The notes beneath the pieces were generated by a model that was not told the origin of the DNA, searched no databases, and saw nothing but the letters and a program-made list of their open reading frames with translations. From an uncultured Candidatus Saccharibacteria bacterium (GTDB lineage Bacteria; Patescibacteriota; Minisyncoccia; UBA6257; Colwellbacteraceae), in assembly GCA_964609135.1 (NCBI GenBank), contig CAZSQQ010000001.1:56673-120672 (forward strand): a stretch of 64,000 bases of DNA, in the 5' to 3' direction. Position numbers and translations under genes: made by a program. Shown here piece by piece: positions 4,641 through 60,422 of the stretch; positions within the stretch are counted from its first letter, which is position 1, and each line of letters begins with the position of its first letter.

Positions 4641-4771
4641 TTTGGAGCCGAAGGCGAGAATCCCCCGCACCAGTCCGCCAACGGCGGACGGTGCGGGACT
4701 AGTCCAGCACCGAGCTTCGCTATGGTGCTGGGGAACCCGCGACCTTCACTTTACCCCTCACCTTTTTCAAG
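4641..4771 (-). other. GC-rich highly structured leader/possible small RNA between tRNA-Thr and prfB start
   Basis: Nested hairpins (CCCGCACC[GTCCGCC-N3-GGCGGAC]GGTGCGGG; CCAGCACC...GGTGCTGG); about 60% GC in an AT-rich genome; six-frame ORF over it implausible. Confidence 0.3.
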
Positions 4772-4845
4772 AGCCGAAGAGAGGAGTTGAACCTCCAACC
4801 TCTCCCTTACGAAGGGATTGCTCTGCCATTGAGCTACTTCGGCGT
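4772..4845 (-). tRNA. tRNA-Thr (anticodon CGU)
   Basis: Hand-folded cloverleaf: acceptor GCCGAAG/CTTCGGC, D-arm GCTC-AATGGCA-GAGC, anticodon loop TTCGTAA, T-arm GGAGG-TTCAACT-CCTCT; no encoded CCA. Confidence 0.8.
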
Positions 4846-4955
4846 AAAAGCATTATAACAAAAGGTGGGGACTCACGAAAGCACTGCCCCCGCCTGACGG
4901 CGGGCAAGTCTGCCACTGCTTGTCCGCCTCTGGCGGAAGCTACTTCGGCCTGAAA
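4846..4955. other. GC-rich hairpin-dense region (possible structured RNA/terminators)
   Basis: Hairpins GCCCGCC-GTCA-GGCGGGGGC and GTCCGCC-TCT-GGCGGA; about 60% GC. Confidence 0.25.
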
Positions 4956-9842: not shown

Positions 9843-10100
9843 ATGCTTATAGATTTTTATGGAAAAGAGTGTCCGCATTGTCTAAGAATGACGCCGCTGG
9901 TGGGCCGCTTAGAAAAAGAGGCGGGCGTTAAGGTTGAAAGATACGAAGTTTGGCACGATGAAGAAAATGCAAAGAAAATGGAAGAATATGATAAGGGTCA
10001 GTGCGGCGGTGTTCCCTTTTTTATTAATACAGAAACTGGAGCCATGATTTGCGGCGAAGCTCCCTATGAAGAGCTGCGGGCTTGGGCTGGTGTAAAATAA
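9843..10100 (+). CDS. thioredoxin-family small protein
   Basis: 85 aa, CPHC active site. Confidence 0.6.
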   Translation: MLIDFYGKECPHCLRMTPLVGRLEKEAGVKVERYEVWHDEENAKKMEEYDKGQCGGVPFFINTETGAMICGEAPYEELRAWAGVK

Positions 10101-10106
10101 TCTTTA

Positions 10107-11158
10107 TGCAACTTAAACCAACATCAATTTTAATACTTTTTATAATCCTCATAGCCGGTTTTTTTGCATGGAGAACTCTTTTCCGAAATGACTTCAACTT
10201 ACCGCGTGGCGGTGAAACCACCAAAGAAACGGTAATTATTCAAAGTAACCAAGATGACAAAACGACAAAAGAAATCATGACTACAAACGGGGTAAAACAC
10301 AGCGTACCGCTTGACCAAATTTTAAGCGGCGGCCCGCCCAAAGACGGAATTCCGCCCATTGATCACCCCAAATTTATTTCTGTTCAGGAGGCAAGCAAAC
10401 AACTATCAGATAAGGAACCTGGGCTGGCTATAGAAATAGACAATGTCAATCGCTTTTATCCCTTCCAAATTTTGGTATGGCACGAGATTGTAAACGATAT
10501 CATAAATGGCAAACGTGTTCTCATCACTTACTGTCCCCTTTGCCTTTCGGGCATCGTCTTTGATCCTTTGGTAAATGGGGAAGGGGTCGAATTCGGCACT
10601 TCCGGCAAGCTTTGGAATTCAAACTTGGTTATGTATGACCGCAAAACTGATTCTTTGTGGTCGCAAATTTTGGGAAAAGCAATCGTGGGAGAAAAAACCG
10701 GAACGCGCCTCGCCGTTTTGCCGTCCGATCAGATTCGATTTGGAGAGTGGAAAAAACTGCATCCTAATGGAGAGGTGCTTTCGCGAGATACGGGAGCAAC
10801 GCGTTTTTATGGACAAGATCCGTACGGGGACTACTATACGACGCCCGGCACTTTCTTCCCGGTCGGGAAGCATGACAGCCGGTTGGGTGAGAAAGAATTT
10901 ATTTTAGGAATAGTAGTGAACGGTAAGGCCAAAGCCTATTGGCCGGCTGCAGTAAAAAAAGCCGGAACCATCGAAGATATTTTTGGGGGTAAGACAATCA
11001 TAGCCAAGTATGAGACAGATATTGATGCTGTACGCCTCTATTCCGCCGAAGGCGGATCCGCCTCTGGCGGAGAAAAGAAATTAGTGCGAATAAATCCGTT
11101 CGGCGCGTTCTGGTTTTCATGGGTGGCGGCGCATCCCGATACGGAACTTTATAAATAA
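10107..11158 (+). CDS. DUF3179-like secreted/membrane-anchored protein
   Basis: N-terminal TM, DGIPPIDHPKF motif typical of DUF3179. Confidence 0.5.
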
Positions 11159-43826: not shown

Positions 43827-44024
43827 CTAAGCGCGCGAGACGTTCACTGCGGCAGGGCCCTTTTCGGTTTCGCTTACCTCAAAGGTGACCTTATCGCCAA
43901 CCTTCAATTCGTCGAAAGTAACGCCCTTCAACTCGTTAGAGTGAAAGAAAAGATCCTTGTCCTCGCCTTCGCGGGCAATGAATCCAAATCCCTTCTGTGT
44001 AAGAGTCTTGATTGTTCCTTGCAT
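43827..44024 (-). CDS. cspA: cold-shock protein
   Basis: 65 aa; KGFGFI RNP-1 motif, FFHSNEL RNP-2. Confidence 0.85.
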   Translation of the reverse strand: MQGTIKTLTQKGFGFIAREGEDKDLFFHSNELKGVTFDELKVGDKVTFEVSETEKGPAAVNVSRA

Positions 44025-44124
44025 TTGGTTGTTTATATTGTTGCTACGAGAAACTCGACATGTTTTCGCTTCCTAATGGTCTAGATGCAATAGACAAAAA
44101 TGATGCCCTATAAGCCCTGTTTTG

Positions 44125-44325
44125 TCAATTCTGCGACAGAATGTTTTGGACCCGGCCTACCTGGCCATTTGTAAGGCGCACTTTTATGCCGTGCGGGTGG
44201 AATTCGGAGTTGGTTAGGATTTCAGCCACCAGTCCGCGAGTAAGTTCTCCGCCCGCCTGATCGGCTTTTAGAACTACTTCCACTTCCATTCCCGGTTTTA
44301 TATCTTTCCTATTCTGCCCGCTCAT
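44125..44325 (-). CDS. YwbE (DUF2196) family protein
   Basis: 66 aa; VEVVLKADQAGGELTRGLVAEIL...GIKVRLTNGQVGRV. Confidence 0.55.
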   Translation of the reverse strand: MSGQNRKDIKPGMEVEVVLKADQAGGELTRGLVAEILTNSEFHPHGIKVRLTNGQVGRVQNILSQN

Positions 44326-44778
44326 AGTTTCAGGGATTTGGCTTTTTCTGAAAGTTCAAATTTTTCCATCTCCTAATTTTTTCGTTGGCCAAATAGTTAT
44401 TTGTAATTTTGGATTTTATACTGCTGATTGCATAATCTAATAAATCTTTGTAATACTTCTAGGTAACAGACCTTGCATTTTCACTAGCTCCTGTATTTAT
44501 AACTTCTTGGGCCACTTGAATACATTTTTTAGCTTTCACAATTCTCTGCTGCTCTCGTAAAATAATCTCTGTGCTATCGGCTATGTCACCAATTCTACCC
44601 TTTACATACATATCTACAGATTAACTTCTAGTCGTATTGAAAAATTTAGCTCTTTTATCTAAATCGCTTTCAAGTTCTTTTTTGGTGGGAACTTTATATC
44701 GTGCGGAGATTCTTTTTCTACCCATAAATTTATTCCCCTAATTTTTTTGTTGGCTAGTTAGTCAATTTCATTCTCTAT

Positions 44779-45414
44779 CTATACAAAATTCATATTTTCT
44801 TCCTTTAAAAACTTTTGAAGTATAGAATTATTAGAAATAATAAATCTGTTACTGAAACCTAAACCAAATTCATTTTCATCTTTAAGAGGTTTTAGCTTTA
44901 ACAACTTTCTCATTTCGAGTATAAAAAGATCCATATATGATCTTTCTTCCGGTATAAAAAGAGTATACACACTTGGTCCTGTTTTTTTAAATTCTGGATA
45001 CCTACTAATCTCATAAAAAAGGTTATATTTTTTAACTATAAAATCTAGATATTTTGAAGTTAAAACCACGCTTTCTAAATTACTTGCTTCATCTGTACAA
45101 TTCTTTAGTAGTTTTTCCAAATCATGCTCAAATAATCCAATGGAACCCTTTTTAAGAATTAGAAAAGATTTTAAGTAATTTTCTATACTTTGATGGAAAA
45201 GAAATAAAAATGTTTCGATGCCCATTCTACATAAAATTCTACCAGCAAAATATAAATCAGTTCCTTTCTCAGCGTATCCACTAAAACTTTTTCTAGATAT
45301 TTTTGAAATTAATTTATTAGACTTTTTGGGATACAAATTTTGACCAAATTGCAACTCACAATAATTTTTAACGAATTTGTAATCGCTAAAATTTCTTATA
45401 CTCTGATTTGCCAT
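44779..45414 (-). CDS. hypothetical protein in low-GC island (possible HEPN-like helical protein)
   Basis: 211 aa, very AT-rich; helix pattern FHQSIENYLKSFLILKKGS...EHDLEKLL; no firm motif. Confidence 0.35.
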   Translation of the reverse strand: MANQSIRNFSDYKFVKNYCELQFGQNLYPKKSNKLISKISRKSFSGYAEKGTDLYFAGRILCRMGIETFLFLFHQSIENYLKSFLILKKGSIGLFEHDLEKLLKNCTDEASNLESVVLTSKYLDFIVKKYNLFYEISRYPEFKKTGPSVYTLFIPEERSYMDLFILEMRKLLKLKPLKDENEFGLGFSNRFIISNNSILQKFLKEENMNFV

Positions 45415-45495
45415 ACATAATCTTAGTTCTCAATCATTTCTTCGACCTTTTGCTTGAGATTCTAACTGAATTATCAATCTTAAAATAGGTGCCTA

Positions 45496-46674
45496 TTAAA
45501 CCCTGCTCATGACTACAGTTTGATTTTTTATTCTTGAAGTAAGTATTCGCAGAAACTTTAATGGGCAACTTTCTACGAAACTTCTAAATAGCCACGCTTC
45601 TTTATCTTCTAGAACTTTGTCTAGATACTCTGGTTGATACCTCACAAGTTCACTCATAAAAAACATGGTGAGATAAATAACTATATCTTCATGTATTGGA
45701 AATCTCTGATCATCAATAATCATAGGAAGGGTGATATCGAAAGAAGTATTATCTAGCAAATACTTTGGTTCTATTGATGAGTCAAATATCTCTTTTAGTA
45801 TCTTCCAACAATTTATCACTCCGTAGTTAGTCGCCTCCAGAGAAGGATAAGAATCTAAAGATATTACCTTATCTTCCTTAAATTGATAAAAATCTAATTC
45901 TAGCCATTCCATTCTATTAAATTGGAATATATCGCGAAAGGCTAGGTCAGCTTTTGTCGGCATAGATACAAACTCAAAATATTCATCAAATTTTTTAAAA
46001 TTCTCATCCAAGATGGTTTTAGTAATGTCTTTCGGGATAGCTAGAACTGACCAAGCCCTTTTCGTATCCTTATCAAAACAAATACGATGAATTACTGAGC
46101 CTATATTTAGATCTCCGAATTTACACTCTAAGTATTGGTACGAAATTTCTATATTATAACTAAATAGGTCTACTACCTTAAATTTCTTCGGCGGTTCTAT
46201 TTGGAAAACTTCTTTGTAAAATAAATAAAATACTTGATTGTCCCCGTGATTAACATCAAGATACTTGTTAATCAAATCACTTACAAATTGATCTTTACTG
46301 TAATAAATGCCGTGAGATACTTTATCTTGTAGGCTAGGATTTTTTAACAAGATAAACGCCTTAACTAAATTTAAGAAAGAGTAATAATAAAGAAGGGAAG
46401 AAGAGCGAAAGTTAGTTTTGGTTGCTACTTCCCAATAATTATTTGCTTGACGGATAAAGGCTCTAAATCTATGCCACGTATTCTCAAATAATGTTTCGGG
46501 TACATTAAACTTCGAAAACAATTCGTAGGCTGCCGACTTAACTTCTGAAACATGAATCAACAAAAGCCATAGTTCTTGTTCTATATCTAGAGAAGTACCC
46601 ATTTCTATCGTGGAAAAAGGTGGATCGTATCTCCAACTATCTATTCTTCTCAGTTGTGGTGCACCATTTGTCAT
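45496..46674 (-). CDS. hypothetical protein in low-GC island (candidate accessory/defense)
   Basis: 392 aa, no recognisable catalytic motif; about 30% GC. Confidence 0.35.
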   Translation of the reverse strand: MTNGAPQLRRIDSWRYDPPFSTIEMGTSLDIEQELWLLLIHVSEVKSAAYELFSKFNVPETLFENTWHRFRAFIRQANNYWEVATKTNFRSSSLLYYYSFLNLVKAFILLKNPSLQDKVSHGIYYSKDQFVSDLINKYLDVNHGDNQVFYLFYKEVFQIEPPKKFKVVDLFSYNIEISYQYLECKFGDLNIGSVIHRICFDKDTKRAWSVLAIPKDITKTILDENFKKFDEYFEFVSMPTKADLAFRDIFQFNRMEWLELDFYQFKEDKVISLDSYPSLEATNYGVINCWKILKEIFDSSIEPKYLLDNTSFDITLPMIIDDQRFPIHEDIVIYLTMFFMSELVRYQPEYLDKVLEDKEAWLFRSFVESCPLKFLRILTSRIKNQTVVMSRV

Positions 46675-46774
46675 ATTATTCCCAAAAACTAATTTTGGTC
46701 TTTGGAGAGTTTAGTAATCTTTTCTTTTTTCTTTGCTAAAAATTCCTTCAAAACCTCCTTTGGCTCGCGGTGGA

Positions 46775-47347
46775 TCATCTTCTTCCCCTGTTATGAGTAG
46801 CAATAGAAACTATCGAGAAAATGTCTTCTCCCTCTTTTAGAGCATCTAACAACTTCTTAAACATGTAAGCTTTGGGCATATTCGTTTTCTCTTGAATCAT
46901 CAAAAGTTTTGCTAACAATATTAGAAACTCTATGCGATATTCTCCAAAATTACTAATGCCTTGATATTCCTTAATTTTATCCTTGTGTGATTCAAATAAA
47001 TTTTTGATATCTAATGCTATTCCCCGTTCTTTTTCACTATTAACAGGCGAGGTTTCATTCCAAATTTCTATCAAAAAATCCAAAAATTTCTTAATCTTCA
47101 CCTGTTTTGAATTCATCTTAATAAGAAGATCTACTGCCCAGTGAATATGCTTAGGAGTTCTAATATTAGACCAGCCTCCATTTTTCTTAACTTGTCGATA
47201 TTTTATCAAAATATCAAATTTACTTAGTTTACCTTGATATACGCCCACAATTATCTTCGGTTCTGGTTCAAGAATCGTGATGGGCTCAAAAACGCTTCCG
47301 TCTTTATTGAAGGTCATCCACTTCTTTATATCTTCTGGTCTTTCCAT
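46775..47347 (-). CDS. putative type II restriction endonuclease (partner of MTase)
   Basis: 190 aa; start overlaps MTase stop by 1 nt (coupled); no clear PD-ExK identified. Confidence 0.3.
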   Translation of the reverse strand: MERPEDIKKWMTFNKDGSVFEPITILEPEPKIIVGVYQGKLSKFDILIKYRQVKKNGGWSNIRTPKHIHWAVDLLIKMNSKQVKIKKFLDFLIEIWNETSPVNSEKERGIALDIKNLFESHKDKIKEYQGISNFGEYRIEFLILLAKLLMIQEKTNMPKAYMFKKLLDALKEGEDIFSIVSIATHNRGRR

Positions 47348-47348
47348 T

Positions 47349-48191
47349 TCAAAACAATTTCGGGTTCGATTTTAGATCCTTAAATCTTTTTATCGATAGG
47401 TTTAAATATTTTTTCTCTGTATCTATTCCAATGAACTTTCGATCATTTAAAACAGCCGCCAATCCAGTTGTAGAACTGCCAGTGAAGGGATCCAGTATTA
47501 AATCTCCTTTCTTTGTACTAGCTAAAATTATTCTATTCAATAAATCAATAGGTTTTTGAGTAGGATGTTTACCAAATTTCTTTTCTCCGTTTTTTGGAGT
47601 ACCGATAACCCAAACTGATCTCATTTGCTTTCCTGGCTTTTTAATGAAATCTTTCAAATGCCAATTACCTTCCTTAATTAATTTGTAATTAAATGTATGT
47701 TTCGCTTTTTTATCCTTTCTCGCCCATATTAAAGTTTCGTGACTGGCAGTAAAATAGCGACCGCTCAGATTAGGTGACGCATTCGGTTTAAACCAAGATA
47801 TATCGTTCAAAATATGATATCCCAAAGCCTGTAATGCGTACCCACACTGATATATTGAATGATAAGTCCCGCTCACCCAAAGAGTACCACTTGGTTTAAG
47901 AACTCTTTTGCACGCTTTAAGCCAACTATAATGAAAATCATAATCATCTTTAAAGCCTTTACTTTTATCCCAATCTCCTTTGTTAACACTAACTCTTCGA
48001 CCCGCATGCACGGTAAAACCACCGTTGGAAAGATTGTAGGGGGGATCCGCAAAAATCATATCAATTGAATTCTCTGGTATTTTCTCTAAAAGCTTTAGGC
48101 TATCGCCATGATATAAAACAAAATCTCCTTGAATGGAGTAAGGTTTTTGCTTGATTGAGGATAGTATTTTCTTATCTGTTTGGATCATCAA
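47349..48191 (-). CDS. DNA methyltransferase (beta-class N6-adenine/N4-cytosine)
   Basis: Motif IV DPPY (IFADPPYNLS) N-terminal; motif I FxGxG (DPFTGSSTTG) C-terminal. Confidence 0.8.
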   Translation of the reverse strand: MMIQTDKKILSSIKQKPYSIQGDFVLYHGDSLKLLEKIPENSIDMIFADPPYNLSNGGFTVHAGRRVSVNKGDWDKSKGFKDDYDFHYSWLKACKRVLKPSGTLWVSGTYHSIYQCGYALQALGYHILNDISWFKPNASPNLSGRYFTASHETLIWARKDKKAKHTFNYKLIKEGNWHLKDFIKKPGKQMRSVWVIGTPKNGEKKFGKHPTQKPIDLLNRIILASTKKGDLILDPFTGSSTTGLAAVLNDRKFIGIDTEKKYLNLSIKRFKDLKSNPKLF

Positions 48192-48250
48192 AGATACCTA
48201 AATTATGGTCATTTTCCGGCTTAAGACAACTTCTCCACCCTCACCCCGAT

Positions 48251-48293
48251 CCTTCGACGGGGGCTTCGACTGAGCTCAGCCGAATGTCCTCAG
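48251..48293. repeat. GC-rich repeat (inverted copy of element at 59568-59600)
   Basis: CTTCGACTGAGCTCAGCCGAATGTCCTCAG approximates revcomp of CTGAGGACATTCGACCGAGCTCAGTCGAGG. Confidence 0.6.
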
Positions 48294-48304
48294 AACAAGT
48301 TAGC

Positions 48305-49537
48305 CTAAATCAGCTTCTCTATTCTAACACCAATTAACCTTATCTTTTTATTTCGAGGATTTTCTCTTTTATCCAAAAACGGCGCAAGCAACCGCAACGC
48401 CTCAAATTTCAGAGTTCCCAAGTCTGACGCTGGTTTAGCTAAAGTATGCGCCCGGGTTTTAGTCTCAAAGTCCGCGAAACGTACCTTAATCGCCACCGTC
48501 CTAAACCCCCTCAATTCGCCTATTCGCCTATTCCCGCCGGAGGCGGGCAGGCGCGCTTGTCCGCCCCTGGCGGAAATTAGAGAACGGTCCGCCAAACGAT
48601 CAATAACGCTCTCGCAAAGTTCATTCAACCGCTCAGAAATAAATCTCGCATCCTTCGTATCCTCCGAAAAAGTTTCCTCTTCTCCGATTGATTTCGCTTC
48701 ATACTCTTCTACGACCGGTGAATCATCTCTACCTCTTACTTTTTCATACAAATCCAGTCCCCATTTGCCCATCATCTTTTCCATTTCCTCTTTCGAAAAC
48801 TTTTTCATGTCGCGGACCAGTTTCACGCCCAACTTCAAAAACATTTCTTCAGTCTTCGGCCCTATCCCCGGAATCTTCCGAATATGCATAGGCTCCAAAA
48901 ACGCTTCGGCCTCTTCCTCACGCACAATAGTCAGTCCATCGGGCTTATTCATTCCCGAGGCAATCTTCGCAATCAATTTATTAGGCCCCACGCCAACCGA
49001 TACCGTGAGCTTCCGTTTTTCTTTAACTTCCTTTTTTATCTTTTTGCAAAGCTCCCTCGCTTTTTCATACCTATCATCAACCATTCGCCTATTCGCGCGA
49101 ATTAGAGAATGGTCTCCGGCAACGAAACTCAATCCTTCGGCAGACTCAGGATTGACCCTGAACAGAGTCGAAGGGGTCAAATCTGCGTAAGCTTCGTCAA
49201 CACTTGCCTGTTCAACCAGTGCAACATGTGTACGAATGATTTCCATTATCTTTTCGGATTCCTCCGCATACTTTCCCATGTTCACTCCGATGAAAACAGT
49301 CTCTGGCTCGCCCTTCCTCCTTGCAATTTCCGACAACCTCCAAGCTTCCGATATAGGCATGGCCGAATGGATCCCATACTCCCGCGCCTTATAATTCGCG
49401 GTTGAAACAACGCCTCTCCCGCGCCCATCCATCGGATCCGCCCCCACCACAACTGGCAATCCCTCAAGCCGCGGCTTATCCCGCTCCTCAATCGCGGCAA
49501 AGAAAGCGTCCATATCGAAATGAGCAACTATCCTCAT
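48305..49537 (-). CDS. dinB: DNA polymerase IV (DinB), with two in-frame repeat insertions
   Basis: MRIVAHFDMDAFFAAIEERD N-terminus; 410 aa (about 50 aa longer than typical) because of repeat-encoded inserts. Confidence 0.85.
   Translation of the reverse strand: MRIVAHFDMDAFFAAIEERDKPRLEGLPVVVGADPMDGRGRGVVSTANYKAREYGIHSAMPISEAWRLSEIARRKGEPETVFIGVNMGKYAEESEKIMEIIRTHVALVEQASVDEAYADLTPSTLFRVNPESAEGLSFVAGDHSLIRANRRMVDDRYEKARELCKKIKKEVKEKRKLTVSVGVGPNKLIAKIASGMNKPDGLTIVREEEAEAFLEPMHIRKIPGIGPKTEEMFLKLGVKLVRDMKKFSKEEMEKMMGKWGLDLYEKVRGRDDSPVVEEYEAKSIGEEETFSEDTKDARFISERLNELCESVIDRLADRSLISARGGQARLPASGGNRRIGELRGFRTVAIKVRFADFETKTRAHTLAKPASDLGTLKFEALRLLAPFLDKRENPRNKKIRLIGVRIEKLI
48512..48588. repeat. palindromic repeat copy A (expanded variant) inside dinB
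   Basis: CAATTCGCCTATTCGCCTATTC-[CCGCCGGAGGCGGGCAGGCGCGCTTGTCCGCCCCTGGCGG]-AAATTAGAGAA; encodes ...SARGGQARLPASGGNRRIGE... Confidence 0.6.
49081..49112. repeat. palindromic repeat copy B inside dinB
   Basis: CCATTCGCCTATTCGCGCGAATTAGAGAATGG (arms CCATTC/GAATGG; core palindrome ATTCGCGCGAAT); encodes LIRANRRMV in-frame. Confidence 0.65.
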
Positions 49538-49581
49538 GTCGAATAACCTTATACCCTAAGCAACGAGATTTATCCACTCCT

Positions 49582-49613
49582 CTCTATTCGCCCATTCGCG
49601 CGAATTAGAGAAG
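49582..49613. repeat. palindromic repeat copy C (intergenic)
   Basis: CTCTATTCGCCCATTCGCGCGAATTAGAGAAG. Confidence 0.65.
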
Positions 49614-49865
49614 AGAAAGAATGTGACGGACAGCCGGCTTTTGGTTTGGGGCTAAGCGATAAAACATCTGTAAACTCTTCTGATCTCTTTCCACAATATC
49701 AAGAGAATCTAGAATCCTAAGGTGCTTGGAAGTAGCCTTAAATGACAATTTAATCTCGCTGGCAATCTCCCCCACAGCGGCCTCGCGGTTCTGTTTCAGA
49801 TACTTCAAAATTGCCAAACGTCGCCTGTTGGCCAGAGCCTTTAGAACCCTCTCCAATTCTTTCAT
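49605..49865 (-). CDS. ArsR-family transcriptional regulator
   Basis: 86 aa; RRLAILKYL...VGEIASEIKLSFKATSKHLRIL. Confidence 0.6.
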   Translation of the reverse strand: MKELERVLKALANRRRLAILKYLKQNREAAVGEIASEIKLSFKATSKHLRILDSLDIVERDQKSLQMFYRLAPNQKPAVRHILSLL

Positions 49866-49887
49866 GTTGCTGCTTTTATTGTATCAC

Positions 49888-49918
49888 ACTATTCGCCTAT
49901 TCGCGCGAATTAGAGACA
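49888..49918. repeat. palindromic repeat copy D (intergenic)
   Basis: ACTATTCGCCTATTCGCGCGAATTAGAGACA. Confidence 0.65.
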
Positions 49919-50019
49919 TAAGGAAATCGAGGAAACGCTTGCCAAAAGTTCAAGCGGGCTATAAGGTAAACCTAATCCAACCCTGACAGATCTTCGACAA
50001 AAACGAAAGGACAAAACAT

Positions 50020-50595
50020 ATGGGAAAGGTTCGGCATGGCACGATCGAACTCATCGTGGGCGGCATGTACTCGGGGAAGAGCGAAGAGCTTATCCGCCGA
50101 GTCGAAAGGGTCTTGATTGCCAAGCGCGCGGTGCAGGTCTTCAAACCGTCGATCGTCCCGGGTGAAGGGGAGGTTGTAGCCCACAACGGCAGGTCGGCGG
50201 CGGCGATCGCAGTCACGAGTCCTGAGGAGCTTATTCAACTACTCAAGCCCGAGACCGCGACCGTTGCAATCGACGAAATCCAGTTCTTCGACTATCGCAT
50301 CGTGAATGCCGTCCGCGCAATCGCAAAGCAAGGGCGGCGCGTCATCTGCGCTGGTCTTGACCTCGACTTCCGCGGAGAACCCTTCGGCTCGGTGCCGGAA
50401 CTCTTGGCCGTCGCGCAGGAGGTCATGAAGCTCACGGCCATCTGTGTCGTCTGCGGAGAACCCGCTACCATGAGCCAGCGGCTCGTGGACGGGAATCCCG
50501 CGAAGTGGGACGACCCAACGGTCGTAATCGGCGCCGAAGAGAAGTATGAAGCGCGCTGCCCTGAGTGCCACGAGATCGAACGACCGGTACCATAG
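50020..50595 (+). CDS. tdk: thymidine kinase
   Basis: GGMYSGKSEEL P-loop; C-terminal zinc ribbon CVVCGEPA...CPECH; about 60% GC. Confidence 0.85.
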   Translation: MGKVRHGTIELIVGGMYSGKSEELIRRVERVLIAKRAVQVFKPSIVPGEGEVVAHNGRSAAAIAVTSPEELIQLLKPETATVAIDEIQFFDYRIVNAVRAIAKQGRRVICAGLDLDFRGEPFGSVPELLAVAQEVMKLTAICVVCGEPATMSQRLVDGNPAKWDDPTVVIGAEEKYEARCPECHEIERPVP

Positions 50596-50620
50596 AAAGG
50601 CCAGGTGGTACAATAAAGGC

Positions 50621-51508
50621 ATGCGACAGTACTTAGACGTCCTATCCAAAGTCATGACCGAAGGGACTGACCGCTCCGATACGGAGGAAGTTTCAACTCG
50701 CTCCACGACAGCGCAATTCATGCGCTTCAACATGCAGGACGGCTTCCCGGCAGTCACGACGAAACGGCTCGCCTTCAGAACGGCGGTCGCGGAACTTCTC
50801 TGGTTCATCTCGGGGAGTTCGAACGTAAACGAACTCCACAAATTAGGCGTTAAGATCTGGGATGGGGACGCCTATAAGCCCTCCTGGCTTCCAAAAGCGC
50901 AATTTCCCGGAGATGTCGGACGTAATTACTCCAAGCAGTGGCGCGAGTGGCTCGCGCCCGACGGCCGGCATGTGGACCAACTAGGCATAGCGATAAATCT
51001 AATCCAGGAAAAACCGTGGACGGCAAGAGCGCTCGTCTCGGCCTGGAACCCGGGCGAACTCGAAGCGACGGCGCTTCCCGCCTGCCACGTACTCTTCCAG
51101 TTCTACTCGGCCGGCGGAAAGCTCTCGCTAACCATGTACCAGAGAAGCTGCGACATGTTCCTCGGCGTCCCCTTCGACACCGCGGAATTCGCCCTGCTTC
51201 TCCACCTCGTGGCACAGATCACGAACCTCGAACCGTGGGAACTGATTCACGTTCTCGCGGAGCCGCATATCTATGAGGGGCACTTCGAGGCCGTGAAGGA
51301 ACAGCTCACGCGCGAACCATTTCCGCATCCGAAGCTCTGGCTGAATCCGGAGCTAAGGACGCTCGATCAAGTGGTCGCGAAATACCGCGAACTCCTGCAA
51401 AGGGCGGAAGGCGAAGAAAAGCCCCTGAAGCTCATGGATGAAGTGGCCCGGCTCGAGGGCTATAAGTCGCATGAACCCCTGAAGGCCGAAATGGTGGTCA
51501 TCAAATGA
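50621..51508 (+). CDS. thyA: thymidylate synthase (ThyA)
   Basis: MRQYLDVL...RFNMQDGFPAVTTKR...ELLWFISG; catalytic Cys in ALPACHVLFQFY; start trimmed from ORF 50546. Confidence 0.85.
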   Translation: MRQYLDVLSKVMTEGTDRSDTEEVSTRSTTAQFMRFNMQDGFPAVTTKRLAFRTAVAELLWFISGSSNVNELHKLGVKIWDGDAYKPSWLPKAQFPGDVGRNYSKQWREWLAPDGRHVDQLGIAINLIQEKPWTARALVSAWNPGELEATALPACHVLFQFYSAGGKLSLTMYQRSCDMFLGVPFDTAEFALLLHLVAQITNLEPWELIHVLAEPHIYEGHFEAVKEQLTREPFPHPKLWLNPELRTLDQVVAKYRELLQRAEGEEKPLKLMDEVARLEGYKSHEPLKAEMVVIK

Positions 51509-52029
51509 TCGGACGAAGCGTGATCTCCATCGTGGCCGCGATGGACCGGAACCGCGTGATAGGGGTCGAGAACCGCCTGCCGTGGCTCATGCCAGCCGAC
51601 ATGAAGAGATTCCGAGATCTCACGATCGGGAAACCCATCCTCATGGGCCGGAAGACCTTCGAATCCATTCTCGCCTCGCTCGGGAAACCACTCCCCAACC
51701 GCCTGAACATCATTCTCACTCGTGACCAGAACTACAAGGCGCCGAACGGCTGCCGAGTGGTTCATTCTGTAGATGATGCACTCGCAATGGCCAACGGAGC
51801 GGAAGAGGTGATGGTCGCAGGCGGCGCGGACATCTTCCAGCAATTCCTTCCCTACGCCGATTCGGTCTACATGACCGAAATCGATTCTGACTTCGAGGGC
51901 GACGCCTCCTTCCCAGAGATGCCGGAGACGGAGTGGCGGCGGGTTCAGAGCGTCCGACACGAACCGGACGAGAAGAATCCTCATCCCTACTCCTTCCAGC
52001 TCTACGTTCGGAAGGAGAAGCTGAACTAG
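51505..52029 (+). CDS. folA: dihydrofolate reductase
   Basis: ISIVAAMDRNRVIG...LPW...GRKTFESI; ATGA overlap with thyA. Confidence 0.85.
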   Translation: MIGRSVISIVAAMDRNRVIGVENRLPWLMPADMKRFRDLTIGKPILMGRKTFESILASLGKPLPNRLNIILTRDQNYKAPNGCRVVHSVDDALAMANGAEEVMVAGGADIFQQFLPYADSVYMTEIDSDFEGDASFPEMPETEWRRVQSVRHEPDEKNPHPYSFQLYVRKEKLN

Positions 52030-59069: not shown

Positions 59070-60422
59070 TCAAGTGTTTCCCATAAAACCACTGTTTCTT
59101 AACTTCTTGTGGTAGGTGATCGCGAACCGGTGAGCTTCGTCGCGAACTCGAATCAAAACTTTTTTGGTGACGCCCTTGGGAATAGAACCTACAAACCTGT
59201 TTGCTTTCCTATCCGGACCCTTGGCGATCCCGACAGTAGGAATTCTCAAACCCGATTCTAACAAGACCTGTTTAGCCGCGTTCACCTGCCCCATTCCCCC
59301 ATCAACCAAAATCACGTCAGGCAAAGGCCAGGGATTGTGAAACCGGCGGCGCAAAACCTCTTTTAACATTCCCACGTCATTCGCTCCTATTATTGTCTTG
59401 ATCCTGAACTTACGATACTCACCCTTGTCGGGCCGGCCGTCTTTAAAGACAACCATAGAACCCACGGCATAATTGCCAGAGATGTTAGAGATGTCATACC
59501 CTTCGACGCGGCTCAGGGCGAGCCCTCCTCTGCGGCTCAGGGCGAGCCCTCCTCTGCGGCTACCCTCGGCCTGAGGACATTCGACCGAGCTCAGTCGAGG
59601 GCCTCGGGTCGAAGGCAGGGCAGGCCCCTCCACAATTTCTGGCTCGGTAATTAGGGCTATGTCCTGGATGTGCTGAAGAGCAAAAATCTGACCTCGGAAC
59701 TTCACCGCCTCTTCGAATTCCAAACTTTTACTCGCCTTCTTCATATCTTTCTCCAAAGACTTCAAAATCTGTTTTTTCTTGCCGTTAAAGAAAAGTTTTA
59801 TGTTTCTTATATTTTTCAGATAAGTTTTTCTATCGATTGCGCCAATGCAGGTGCCAGGGCAAAGCTTAATTTCATATTCAAAGCATCCCTTGGAAAACTT
59901 GCCTACCCTTCCTGGTTGATGAATGCTGAAAGGAAATATCCTTCTAATTATCTTTAAGGCGTCGCGGATGCTGGTCGCGGAAGTAAAAGGACCGAACCCT
60001 TCGACGCGGCTCAGGGCAGGCCCTCCGGCGCGGCTCAGTGCAAGTCTTTTCTCCTTACTCGTAGCAAGCTCTTTTCCCCGCACAAGCAATACGCGCGGGA
60101 ACTTATCTTTGGTAATCTCTACGTAAAGAAAACTTTTGTCATCCTTTTCCCGGACGTTATAGGGCGGACGACGTTTTTTAATAAGCTCGGCTTCCAAAAT
60201 CAGCGCCTCAATTGCAGTATCAGTTTTCTTGTAATCAATTTTCGCAATTTCACTTACCAACTTCTCCGTTTTCCAATCGCCGGAGCGCAAAAAATAACTG
60301 GAGACTCTCCGTTTCAAGTTTCCCGCTTTCCCGACATAAAGAATGCTCCCCCGCTTATCCTTCATGAGATATATGCCTGGGGTGTCCGGAAGATTTTTGT
60401 ATAAATTCTCCTTACTTTTCAC
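59070..60422 (-). CDS. uvrC: excinuclease ABC subunit C-like (GIY-YIG N-terminus, RNase-H-like C-region), with in-frame GC-rich repeat insertions
   Basis: GIY-YIG GIYLMKD...ILYVGKAGNLKRRV; C-terminal ILVDGGMGQVNAA; inserts encode ALSRVEG-type repeats. Confidence 0.7.
   Translation of the reverse strand: MKSKENLYKNLPDTPGIYLMKDKRGSILYVGKAGNLKRRVSSYFLRSGDWKTEKLVSEIAKIDYKKTDTAIEALILEAELIKKRRPPYNVREKDDKSFLYVEITKDKFPRVLLVRGKELATSKEKRLALSRAGGPALSRVEGFGPFTSATSIRDALKIIRRIFPFSIHQPGRVGKFSKGCFEYEIKLCPGTCIGAIDRKTYLKNIRNIKLFFNGKKKQILKSLEKDMKKASKSLEFEEAVKFRGQIFALQHIQDIALITEPEIVEGPALPSTRGPRLSSVECPQAEGSRRGGLALSRRGGLALSRVEGYDISNISGNYAVGSMVVFKDGRPDKGEYRKFRIKTIIGANDVGMLKEVLRRRFHNPWPLPDVILVDGGMGQVNAAKQVLLESGLRIPTVGIAKGPDRKANRFVGSIPKGVTKKVLIRVRDEAHRFAITYHKKLRNSGFMGNT
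59501..59630. repeat. GC-rich repeat block inside uvrC (tandem GCGGCTCAGGGCGAGCCCTCCTCT x2 plus palindromic tail)
   Basis: Tandem 24-mers at 59508-59555; the tail CCTGAGGACATTCGACCGAGCTCAGTCGAGG is an inverted match to 48264-48293. Confidence 0.65.
59998..60044. repeat. second GC-rich repeat inside uvrC
   Basis: CCTTCGACGCGGCTCAGGGCAGGCCCTCCGGCGCGGCTCAG, same family as 59501-59630. Confidence 0.6.

Follow-up and report, generated by a model that had tools for sequence, protein, structure and literature searches.

Members of the ArsR/SmtB family such as SmtB, CzrA, HlyU, NolR, SdpR and BigR are small winged-helix proteins that repress their own synthesis from an imperfect palindrome lying over the promoter of the regulator gene, which is followed by a second, regulated gene. 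In other systems an extra operator copy is located a few hundred base pairs into a coding sequence, as are lacO2 in lacZ (the lacO1-lacO2 spacing is 401 bp) and galOI in galE. Short palindromes may also be repeats that spread: Rickettsia palindromic elements (RPEs), which are about 100-150 bp long, specific to Rickettsia, present in dozens of copies per genome and without known protein partner, lie in-frame in genes, where they add a surface peptide and leave the fold unbroken. In bacteria of the candidate phyla radiation (CPR, or Patescibacteria), transcription factors are very few and almost nothing is known of gene regulation. We analysed a 64-kb stretch of DNA from an uncultured Candidatus Saccharibacteria bacterium (hereafter the window; GC content 44.8%), in which a preliminary description had reported a family of short palindromes in and around dinB and had likened them to RPEs and to MITEs (miniature inverted-repeat transposable elements). 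We propose instead, with a probability of about 0.7, that the motif is one half of a conserved CPR regulator-operator pair, to which dinB would have been recruited in this lineage together with in-frame intragenic operator copies. A regulator-site pair, and not a private mobile repeat, is the most likely interpretation of the sequences compared here.

The window contains three plain copies of the palindrome ACYATTCGCCYATTCGCGCGAATTAGAGA, 90-97% identical to each other and called here sites C, B and A in the direction of transcription (Table 1), and one expanded copy. That these copies are real, as first described, is indicated by the 18-mer ATTCGCGCGAATTAGAGA (core plus arm), found three times exactly compared with 0.10 times in shuffled sequences. 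In a position-weight scan of the 64 kb, sites A, B and C scored 41.7-46.6 bits and nothing else exceeded 12 bits; the family is therefore confined to one locus within the window, and mismatch scans likewise detected no dispersed copies in the 64 kb besides the three intact copies and the expanded, split one. Site C is followed after 5 nt by the extended -10 box TGATACAAT of a gene encoding an ArsR-type protein, the ATG of which is 12 nt further. Sites B and C had both been described as intergenic. This does not hold for site B, which contains the TAA stop codon (49605-49607; TCTC-TAA-TTCG) and the last codons of the ArsR-type gene, previously unnoticed. Site A lies about 430 nt into dinB, 503 bp from site B. 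A DnaA-box-like sequence, TTATCCAC, is present at 49565-49575 between site B and the dinB start, and is probably a chance match.

The 86-aa protein encoded between sites B and C is a bona fide ArsR/SmtB member. It matches Pfam HTH_5 (1.5e-9) and NCBIfam NF033788 (66.7 bits for a cutoff of 55), and its profile matches the solved structures of HlyU (1.5e-14), CzrA, NolR, BigR and SmtB, its nearest relatives being HlyU, Lmo1102, CzrA and NolR. Sequence and alignment were searched for the canonical metal or metalloid sensor residues (alpha3 Cys; alpha5 His/Asp/Glu) and none were found: Cys is missing from the window protein, as is any DxHx10HxxE-type motif. It has no recognisable metal or thiol sensor site and here resembles non-metal members such as HlyU and SdpR. 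Over the family, the protein is 86 aa long with a mean column identity of 66% and a near-invariant recognition helix, LSFKATSKHL.

The motif was searched for elsewhere with the degenerate pattern TCTCTWATTCGNNCGAATNRGMGA, using one genome per species; all motif-based counts given below cover the matches listed. At least 120 loci were found, compared with about 2 expected under uniform base composition, and by their titles almost all belong to Patescibacteria lineages or to unclassified metagenome-assembled genomes. The named lineages are Saccharibacteria, Paceibacterota, and Kaiser-, Nomura-, Sung-, Doudna-, Uhr-, Moran-, Kerfeld-, Lipton-, Vogel- and Jorgensenbacteria. A repeat family private to this genome is thereby ruled out. 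Aligned, the matches give the consensus (ctaT)TCTCTAATTCGCGCGAATAGGCGAATAG(t); nearly every base of it is conserved over many CPR lineages, within flanks that are unrelated from locus to locus. The conserved unit spans 28-32 nt and is best read as four 8-nt half-sites, CTATTCTC TAATTCGC followed by GCGAATAG GCGAATAG. Genomes that recur among the matches have about 2-5 strict matches each.

About 39 of the motif loci encode an ArsR-type homolog, 50-80% identical, adjoining the site. The core lies upstream of 39 of 41 arsR copies and at or just after the stop codon of 34 of them, with both positions occupied in 33; as in the window, the TAA stop is inside the site in 20 of the 41. As these loci had been chosen by the motif, the test was repeated on 80 metagenome loci picked by the protein only, allowing one mismatch at most in the core. 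The core was present within 160 nt upstream in 74/79 cases, at or after the stop codon in 53/81, and at both positions in 49/76, and some of the missing stop-position sites proved to be split sites of the kind described below. A strict -10 box was found between the site and the arsR ATG in 47 of 66 loci, compared with 10 of 66 control flanks of equal length. This box usually begins 2-5 or 11-17 nt past the site, with its end 6-20 nt from the ATG, so that the site covers the -35/spacer region and precedes the transcription start. Autorepressor operators classically occupy such a position, and the upstream copies, placed just before that box, look like DNA operators. The genes that neighbour arsR also vary widely between loci.

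Sites acting at the level of the chromosome rather than on gene expression, in the manner of parS, of Noc-binding or matS sites, or of recombinase targets, might show part of this distribution, since palindromic sites such as parS are often intragenic and few per genome. However, no ParB, Xer or Noc-type gene was found beside the motif sites, the gene that the sites flank at promoter distance is small and of autoregulator type, and the sites are scattered over many contigs without clustering in one chromosomal region. We regard this explanation as very improbable.

Returning to the regulator-operator pair, the 86-aa protein is probably what binds the sites, an assignment based on co-localisation. 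It may bind them as dimers or as a dimer of dimers. At site C, which adjoins the regulator's own extended -10 box, it would repress initiation, an arrangement that fits autorepression. Site B, over the regulator stop codon and in front of dinB, may have brought dinB under the same regulator in this lineage; binding at sites B and A would block transcription or loop the DNA, and site A, like lacO2 or galOI, could be an auxiliary operator within the gene, or a roadblock. By analogy, the best functional match is thus an ArsR/SmtB autorepressor with an inverted-repeat operator combined with an auxiliary intragenic operator of the lacO2/galOI kind. Compared with described ArsR/SmtB operators, the site is longer, with its four half-sites and a conserved asymmetry; a second putative operator occupies the regulator's stop codon, and further copies are in-frame in the downstream gene; and the pair is kept across a whole superphylum with a near-invariant site. 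Unlike lacO2 and galOI, the intragenic site would have entered as an insertion adding a disordered loop, and looping by ArsR-family proteins is a proposal only. As dinB is the putative target, an SOS box bound by LexA was also considered; the motif appears unlike the GAAC-N4-GTTC and CTGT-N8-ACAG types.

The in-frame position of site A and of the expanded copy in dinB was confirmed, as was the suggestion that comparison with orthologs would show them to be insertions. At 410 aa, the window DinB exceeds the modal ortholog length (357 aa, seen for 45 of the best 120 homologs) by 53 aa. In the alignment the additional residues are located at two points: the first follows the catalytic DEAY strand, and the second lies in the little-finger domain, where it separates the first helix and strand. 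A solved DinB structure (7yll) aligns as three blocks, the breaks falling precisely at these points. The AlphaFold2 model has a mean predicted local distance difference test score (pLDDT) of 84.7, and values below 50 are confined to residues 127-151 and 320-341; the inserts should therefore form disordered loops on a fold that is confidently predicted elsewhere, in agreement with the surface loops anticipated for them. Unrelated inserts are present at the same two points in other CPR DinB proteins (P0021, P0037, P0071, P0057, P0045 and P0023); both loops therefore tolerate insertions generally, and the intragenic copies are presumably tolerated because they lie in these surface loops, which accept insertions in many CPR lineages. 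The single open sense frame of such copies encodes a hydrophilic peptide, SLIRANRRI/M.

The 45-nt insert that carries site A is present in only three of the best 120 homologs, P0001-P0003. P0003 comes from an independent assembly (a different 28-kb contig) and encodes the same first 241 aa, inserts included. The closest ortholog, P0002 (372 aa, 71% identity), has SLIRANRRM at the first insertion point and lacks both the neighbouring 16 residues and the entire second insert. Three independent metagenome assemblies (L001-L003) yielded the orthologous locus, with the ArsR-type gene followed by dinB as in the window. These repeated features lead us to reject an assembly artefact, which the preliminary description had envisaged. 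The orthologous locus has exactly three core palindromes, at the positions seen in the window: upstream of arsR, between arsR and dinB, and inside dinB. Its intergenic sites have diverged (ATTCGTACGAAT and ATTCGTGAGAAT, the latter upstream of arsR), and the arsR-dinB intergenic site is a perfect 32-nt palindrome, CTATTCTCTTATTCGTACGAATAAGAGAATAG. Site A is identical over 28 nt to its counterpart (L001:6382). The two dinB genes are 75% identical in nucleotides, and third positions at identical residues are only 53% identical (n = 280); despite this, the nine codons of site A are the same in both genes, and none of the 8 third positions open to synonymous change differs (chance probability about 0.006). 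This argues that the intragenic copy was inherited and is under constraint at the DNA level. From this comparison, the intergenic copies appear to have drifted within the motif while the intragenic copy held, and the maintenance of three positions while the intergenic sequences diverge points to vertical inheritance under constraint rather than to transposition.

The expanded copy corresponds to a 66-nt in-frame insert (48515-48580), absent from L001 in the codon alignment, that encodes SLISARGGQARLPASGGNRRIGE. In gene orientation it reads TCTCTAATT + TCCGCCAGGGGCGGACAAG-CGCGC-CTGCCCGCCTCCGGCGG + GAATAGGCGAATAGGCGAAT, and its sequence is that of an operator split at its centre by a GC-rich palindrome; it may thus be an operator whose centre took up a GC-rich hairpin module. 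The nested palindrome folds as one long hairpin within the composite element. The elements had been reported to be about 65% GC. This is true of the expanded copy (64%), because of its nested hairpin, whereas the plain copies are 47-50% GC. An inner segment of the expanded copy, CTTGTCCGCCCCTGGCGGAA, recurs with one mismatch as CTTGTCCGCCTCTGGCGGAA at 4919-4938 next to tRNA-Thr (0 expected), a resemblance already pointed out in the preliminary description, and the module is also found solo at 4888-4936 and 11042-11071. At least 9 more CPR loci show the same split architecture, and in several of them it occupies the canonical arsR-stop position. In these loci the central CG(C/T)G has on its left a hairpin CC(C/T)(G/C)CC-N4-GGCGGGCA(A/G)G and/or, on its right, the mirror image of this hairpin, CTTG(T/C)CCGCC... 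The operator centre is either an insertion hotspot or part of a propagated variant.

Table 1. Positions of the sites, genes and inserted elements (window coordinates unless a locus is named; scores from the position-weight scan)
Feature	Position	Strand	Description
Site C	49889..49918	-	Intact, operator-like, TGTCTCTAATTCGCGCGAATAGGCGAATAG; 41.7 bits
Site B	49584..49613	-	Intact; 47 nt upstream of dinB ATG; 46.6 bits
Site A	49081..49110	-	Intact, intragenic in dinB, sense orientation, encodes SLIRANRRM; 44.9 bits
ArsR-type gene	49605..49865	-	86-aa ArsR/SmtB-family winged-helix regulator without Cys; candidate binder; between sites B and C
dinB (DNA polymerase IV)	48305..49537	-	410 aa; Pfam IMS, IMS_C, HHH; NCBIfam PRK02406
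45-nt in-frame insert carrying site A	49076..49120	-	Residues ~140-154; shared with L001 ortholog; from alignment and codon alignment
Expanded copy	48512..48585	-	Operator arms TCTCTAATT (left) and GAATAGGCGAATAGGCGAAT (right) around nested hairpin
Nested palindrome	48534..48574		41 nt, 83% GC, CCGCCGGAGGCGGGCAGG-CGCG-CTTGTCCGCCCCTGGCGGA, centre of expanded copy
Split sites elsewhere in CPR	L126:739, L147:4584, L153:597, L167:687, L099:6916, L109:4166, L120:6314, L128:166, L097:1842
48-nt in-frame insert in dinB	49133..49180	-	LTPSTLFRVNPESAEG; CCTTCGAC-type GC-rich hairpin (CCTTCGAC...CGAAGG), family distinct from motif
Solo GC-rich hairpin	4888..4936		Beside tRNA-Thr; -34.7 kcal/mol, z = -4.3
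uvrC	59070..60422	-	Carries ACCCTTCGACGCGGCTCAGGGCGAGCCC... repeats in-frame

Several observations weigh against a simple regulator-operator pair. The asymmetry of the site is conserved and directional: 49 of 55 asymmetric intergenic sites face the downstream gene and 6 face away (P ~2e-9), a property that is not required of a simple symmetric operator. Symmetric positions outside the conserved core covary above expectation, which also fits selection for a hairpin; this count exceeds independence, but the pooling of lineages can yield the same excess. Some solo sites lie just 11-20 nt before a start codon, leaving scant room for a promoter. The genes that follow solo sites are mixed (ArgRS, GlmS, TsaD, an ABC-F protein, Pif1, Mur ligases, acylphosphatase and a ~580-aa Zn-ribbon protein), and Pfam searches and clustering of about 100 downstream genes gave no coherent regulon beyond arsR itself and the ~580-aa Zn-ribbon protein. 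About 12 of 135 sites (~9%) are within coding sequences, of which 10 are in sense and 1 in antisense orientation, although the antisense strand has two open frames and the sense strand one; their hosts are unrelated (Mur ligases, GT1, AlaRS, UvrC, a DinB-like protein). Lastly, the second dinB copy, the 66-nt insert, is missing from the closest ortholog, so copies have been gained within coding sequence. From these sequences, copies of the site appear to have arisen at new positions over evolutionary time, which the operator model alone leaves unexplained.

The directional asymmetry would be accounted for if the motif acted as RNA, folding as a hairpin of the sense strand within 5' leaders, intercistronic stretches and coding regions that affects mRNA stability, processing or translation and is possibly protein-bound. 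The sense orientation within genes agrees with this, as do the covarying outer flanks and one symmetric position where T·G, able to form a wobble pair in the sense RNA alone, is the most frequent state. The bulged-hairpin folding claimed for the window copies was also reproduced, with a stability that is modest and varies between copies (-7.6 to -17.6 kcal/mol, z = -0.6 to -3.95), most strongly at site B (-17.6 kcal/mol, z = -3.95); site C, however, folds no better than shuffled sequences (z = -0.57). The stem has two conserved mismatches, the non-pairing A·A and T·C are the most frequent combinations at two positions, and four direct and inverted 8-nt half-sites are typical of protein-DNA recognition. 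No curated covariance model of Rfam 15 matched, mir-BART2 alone giving a chance match (25.7 bits for a gathering score of 60). The copies upstream of arsR precede the -10 box and hence are not transcribed from that promoter; because they lie upstream of the transcription start, a purely RNA-level role is incompatible with them. A role as an RNA element is accordingly improbable.

The gain of copies is what would be expected of a short non-autonomous mobile palindromic repeat related to RPEs, MITEs or repetitive extragenic palindromic (REP) sequences, copying itself into intergenic DNA and in-frame into genes, with the ArsR-type gene as a mere usual companion. The 66-nt dinB copy is a lineage-specific gain, the sites in unrelated genes always encode SLIRAN(R/K)R(I/M), and the sequence is nearly invariant in widely differing genomic contexts. 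A gene between two copies of a short imperfect palindrome also recalls the arrangement of REPs with their transposase (RAYT, or TnpA-REP). On the other hand, the copy number is low (one locus in 64 kb, a few strict matches per recurring genome), sites A, B and C have no target-site duplication around them and no terminal repeats beyond the single palindrome, and dozens of phylogenetically distant loci keep the sites at set distances from the arsR promoter and stop codon, as the orthologous locus keeps its three positions in spite of the divergence of the intergenic copies. No transposase was adjacent in the loci inspected, where no systematic search for one was made, and the flanked gene encodes an 86-aa DNA-binding-type protein.

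Comparison with each class leads to the same result. RPEs share the in-frame insertion into open reading frames (ORFs), but the motif is 28-32 nt long rather than 100-150 bp, is not dispersed in many copies over the 64 kb, and is promoter-associated and coupled to a regulator gene. The terminal inverted repeats and target-site duplication of a MITE are lacking at sites A, B and C. Where RAYT systems have a Y1 (IS200/IS605-like) transposase, the gene here is of the winged-helix ArsR family, and the few copies are at promoters and inside genes, not at the 3' ends of operons. The motif thus falls outside the RPE, MITE and REP/RAYT classes by its size, its copy number, the lack of target-site duplication and the kind of gene that it flanks. 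What stands of the RPE/MITE-like proposal is that the in-frame copies occupy segments absent from typical orthologs and that one is a lineage-specific gain; what does not is its application to a CPR-wide site positionally tied to an ArsR-type gene and promoter. We therefore find a mobile repeat unlikely.

A further reading goes beyond a fixed operator: the site could be the cis-regulatory module of a pan-CPR master regulator, occasionally copied in sense into coding loops and new promoters, its CG-rich centre being a preferred landing site for GC-rich hairpin modules. We hold this to be doubtful; if true, it would describe a two-level system of mobile micro-elements that reshape regulation and protein loops in reduced CPR genomes.

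In a literature search of incomplete coverage, neither the motif nor, for CPR, the regulator or palindromes inserted in-frame were found to be described, and the regulator-site pair is apparently undescribed. A regulator conserved at 50-80% identity over many CPR lineages and its near-invariant site provide a concrete, testable entry to CPR gene regulation: the site lends itself to synthesis, the protein is small, and some Saccharibacteria are in culture. The arrangement suggests that at this locus the translesion polymerase DinB is under this regulator and not, or not only, under LexA. It would also mean that operator copies can persist in-frame inside a regulated gene as loops predicted to be disordered. 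More generally, GC-rich palindromes have repeatedly been taken up, at the same loops, by CPR proteins such as DinB and UvrC, which bears on gene calling, alignments and structure prediction.

Two further observations concern the regulator and its neighbours. In some CPR genomes two paralogous ArsR-type genes lie close together, each with its own flanking sites (L033, 2576-2833 and 7016-7273; L139; L144; L146). The commonest non-arsR gene directly downstream of a site, which is also the commonest neighbour of arsR, encodes a protein of ~580 aa that carries a double zinc ribbon at its N-terminus (MKSEIKNCQNC...) and has no Pfam or NCBIfam match (L021:2366-4099, L048, L055, L064, L089, L091 and others).

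The window contains other palindromes in coding sequence. The 48-nt insert of dinB, which belongs to a family different from the motif, is absent in L001 at a clean codon boundary and, unlike the motif sites, has TTGA on both flanks; it looks like a genuine small mobile palindromic element. Its CCTTCGAC-type relatives are present downstream of dinB in intergenic DNA (48241-48300) and in-frame in uvrC (59498-59570 and 59996-60044), where the repeats yield the peptides LALSRVEG, PALSRVEG and RRGGLALSRRGGLALSRVEG, one array being a 24-nt tandem duplication. A CCGCC...GGCGG palindrome, TCCGCCGAAGGCGGATCCGCCTCTGGCGGA, is in-frame at 11042-11071 in the ORF 10082..11158(+) and encodes AEGGSASGG near the C-terminus of a 358-aa protein. 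The RPE/MITE-like description suits these GC-rich hairpins (49133-49180, 59498-59570, 59996-60044 and 11042-11071), as well as the nested one (48534-48574), better than the motif for which it was proposed.

The arsR-dinB locus is flanked by two stretches of shifted composition, both likely to have been acquired horizontally. At 44-48 kb the GC content drops to 29-35% over an N6/N4 DNA methyltransferase gene (47349..48191, - strand) and an unannotated 190-aa ORF, and the 44000-48200 stretch is probably a restriction-modification island. At 50-52 kb (50000-52000) it climbs to 58-59% over the genes for thymidine kinase and thymidylate synthase. At the other end of the window, within 4771-4951, the first 12 nt of tRNA-Thr (AGCTACTTCGGC, + strand; 5' end near 4832-4843) recur at 4940-4951. 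Between these 12-nt copies lie about 95 nt, among them the solo hairpin, and this looks like an attachment-site or target duplication.

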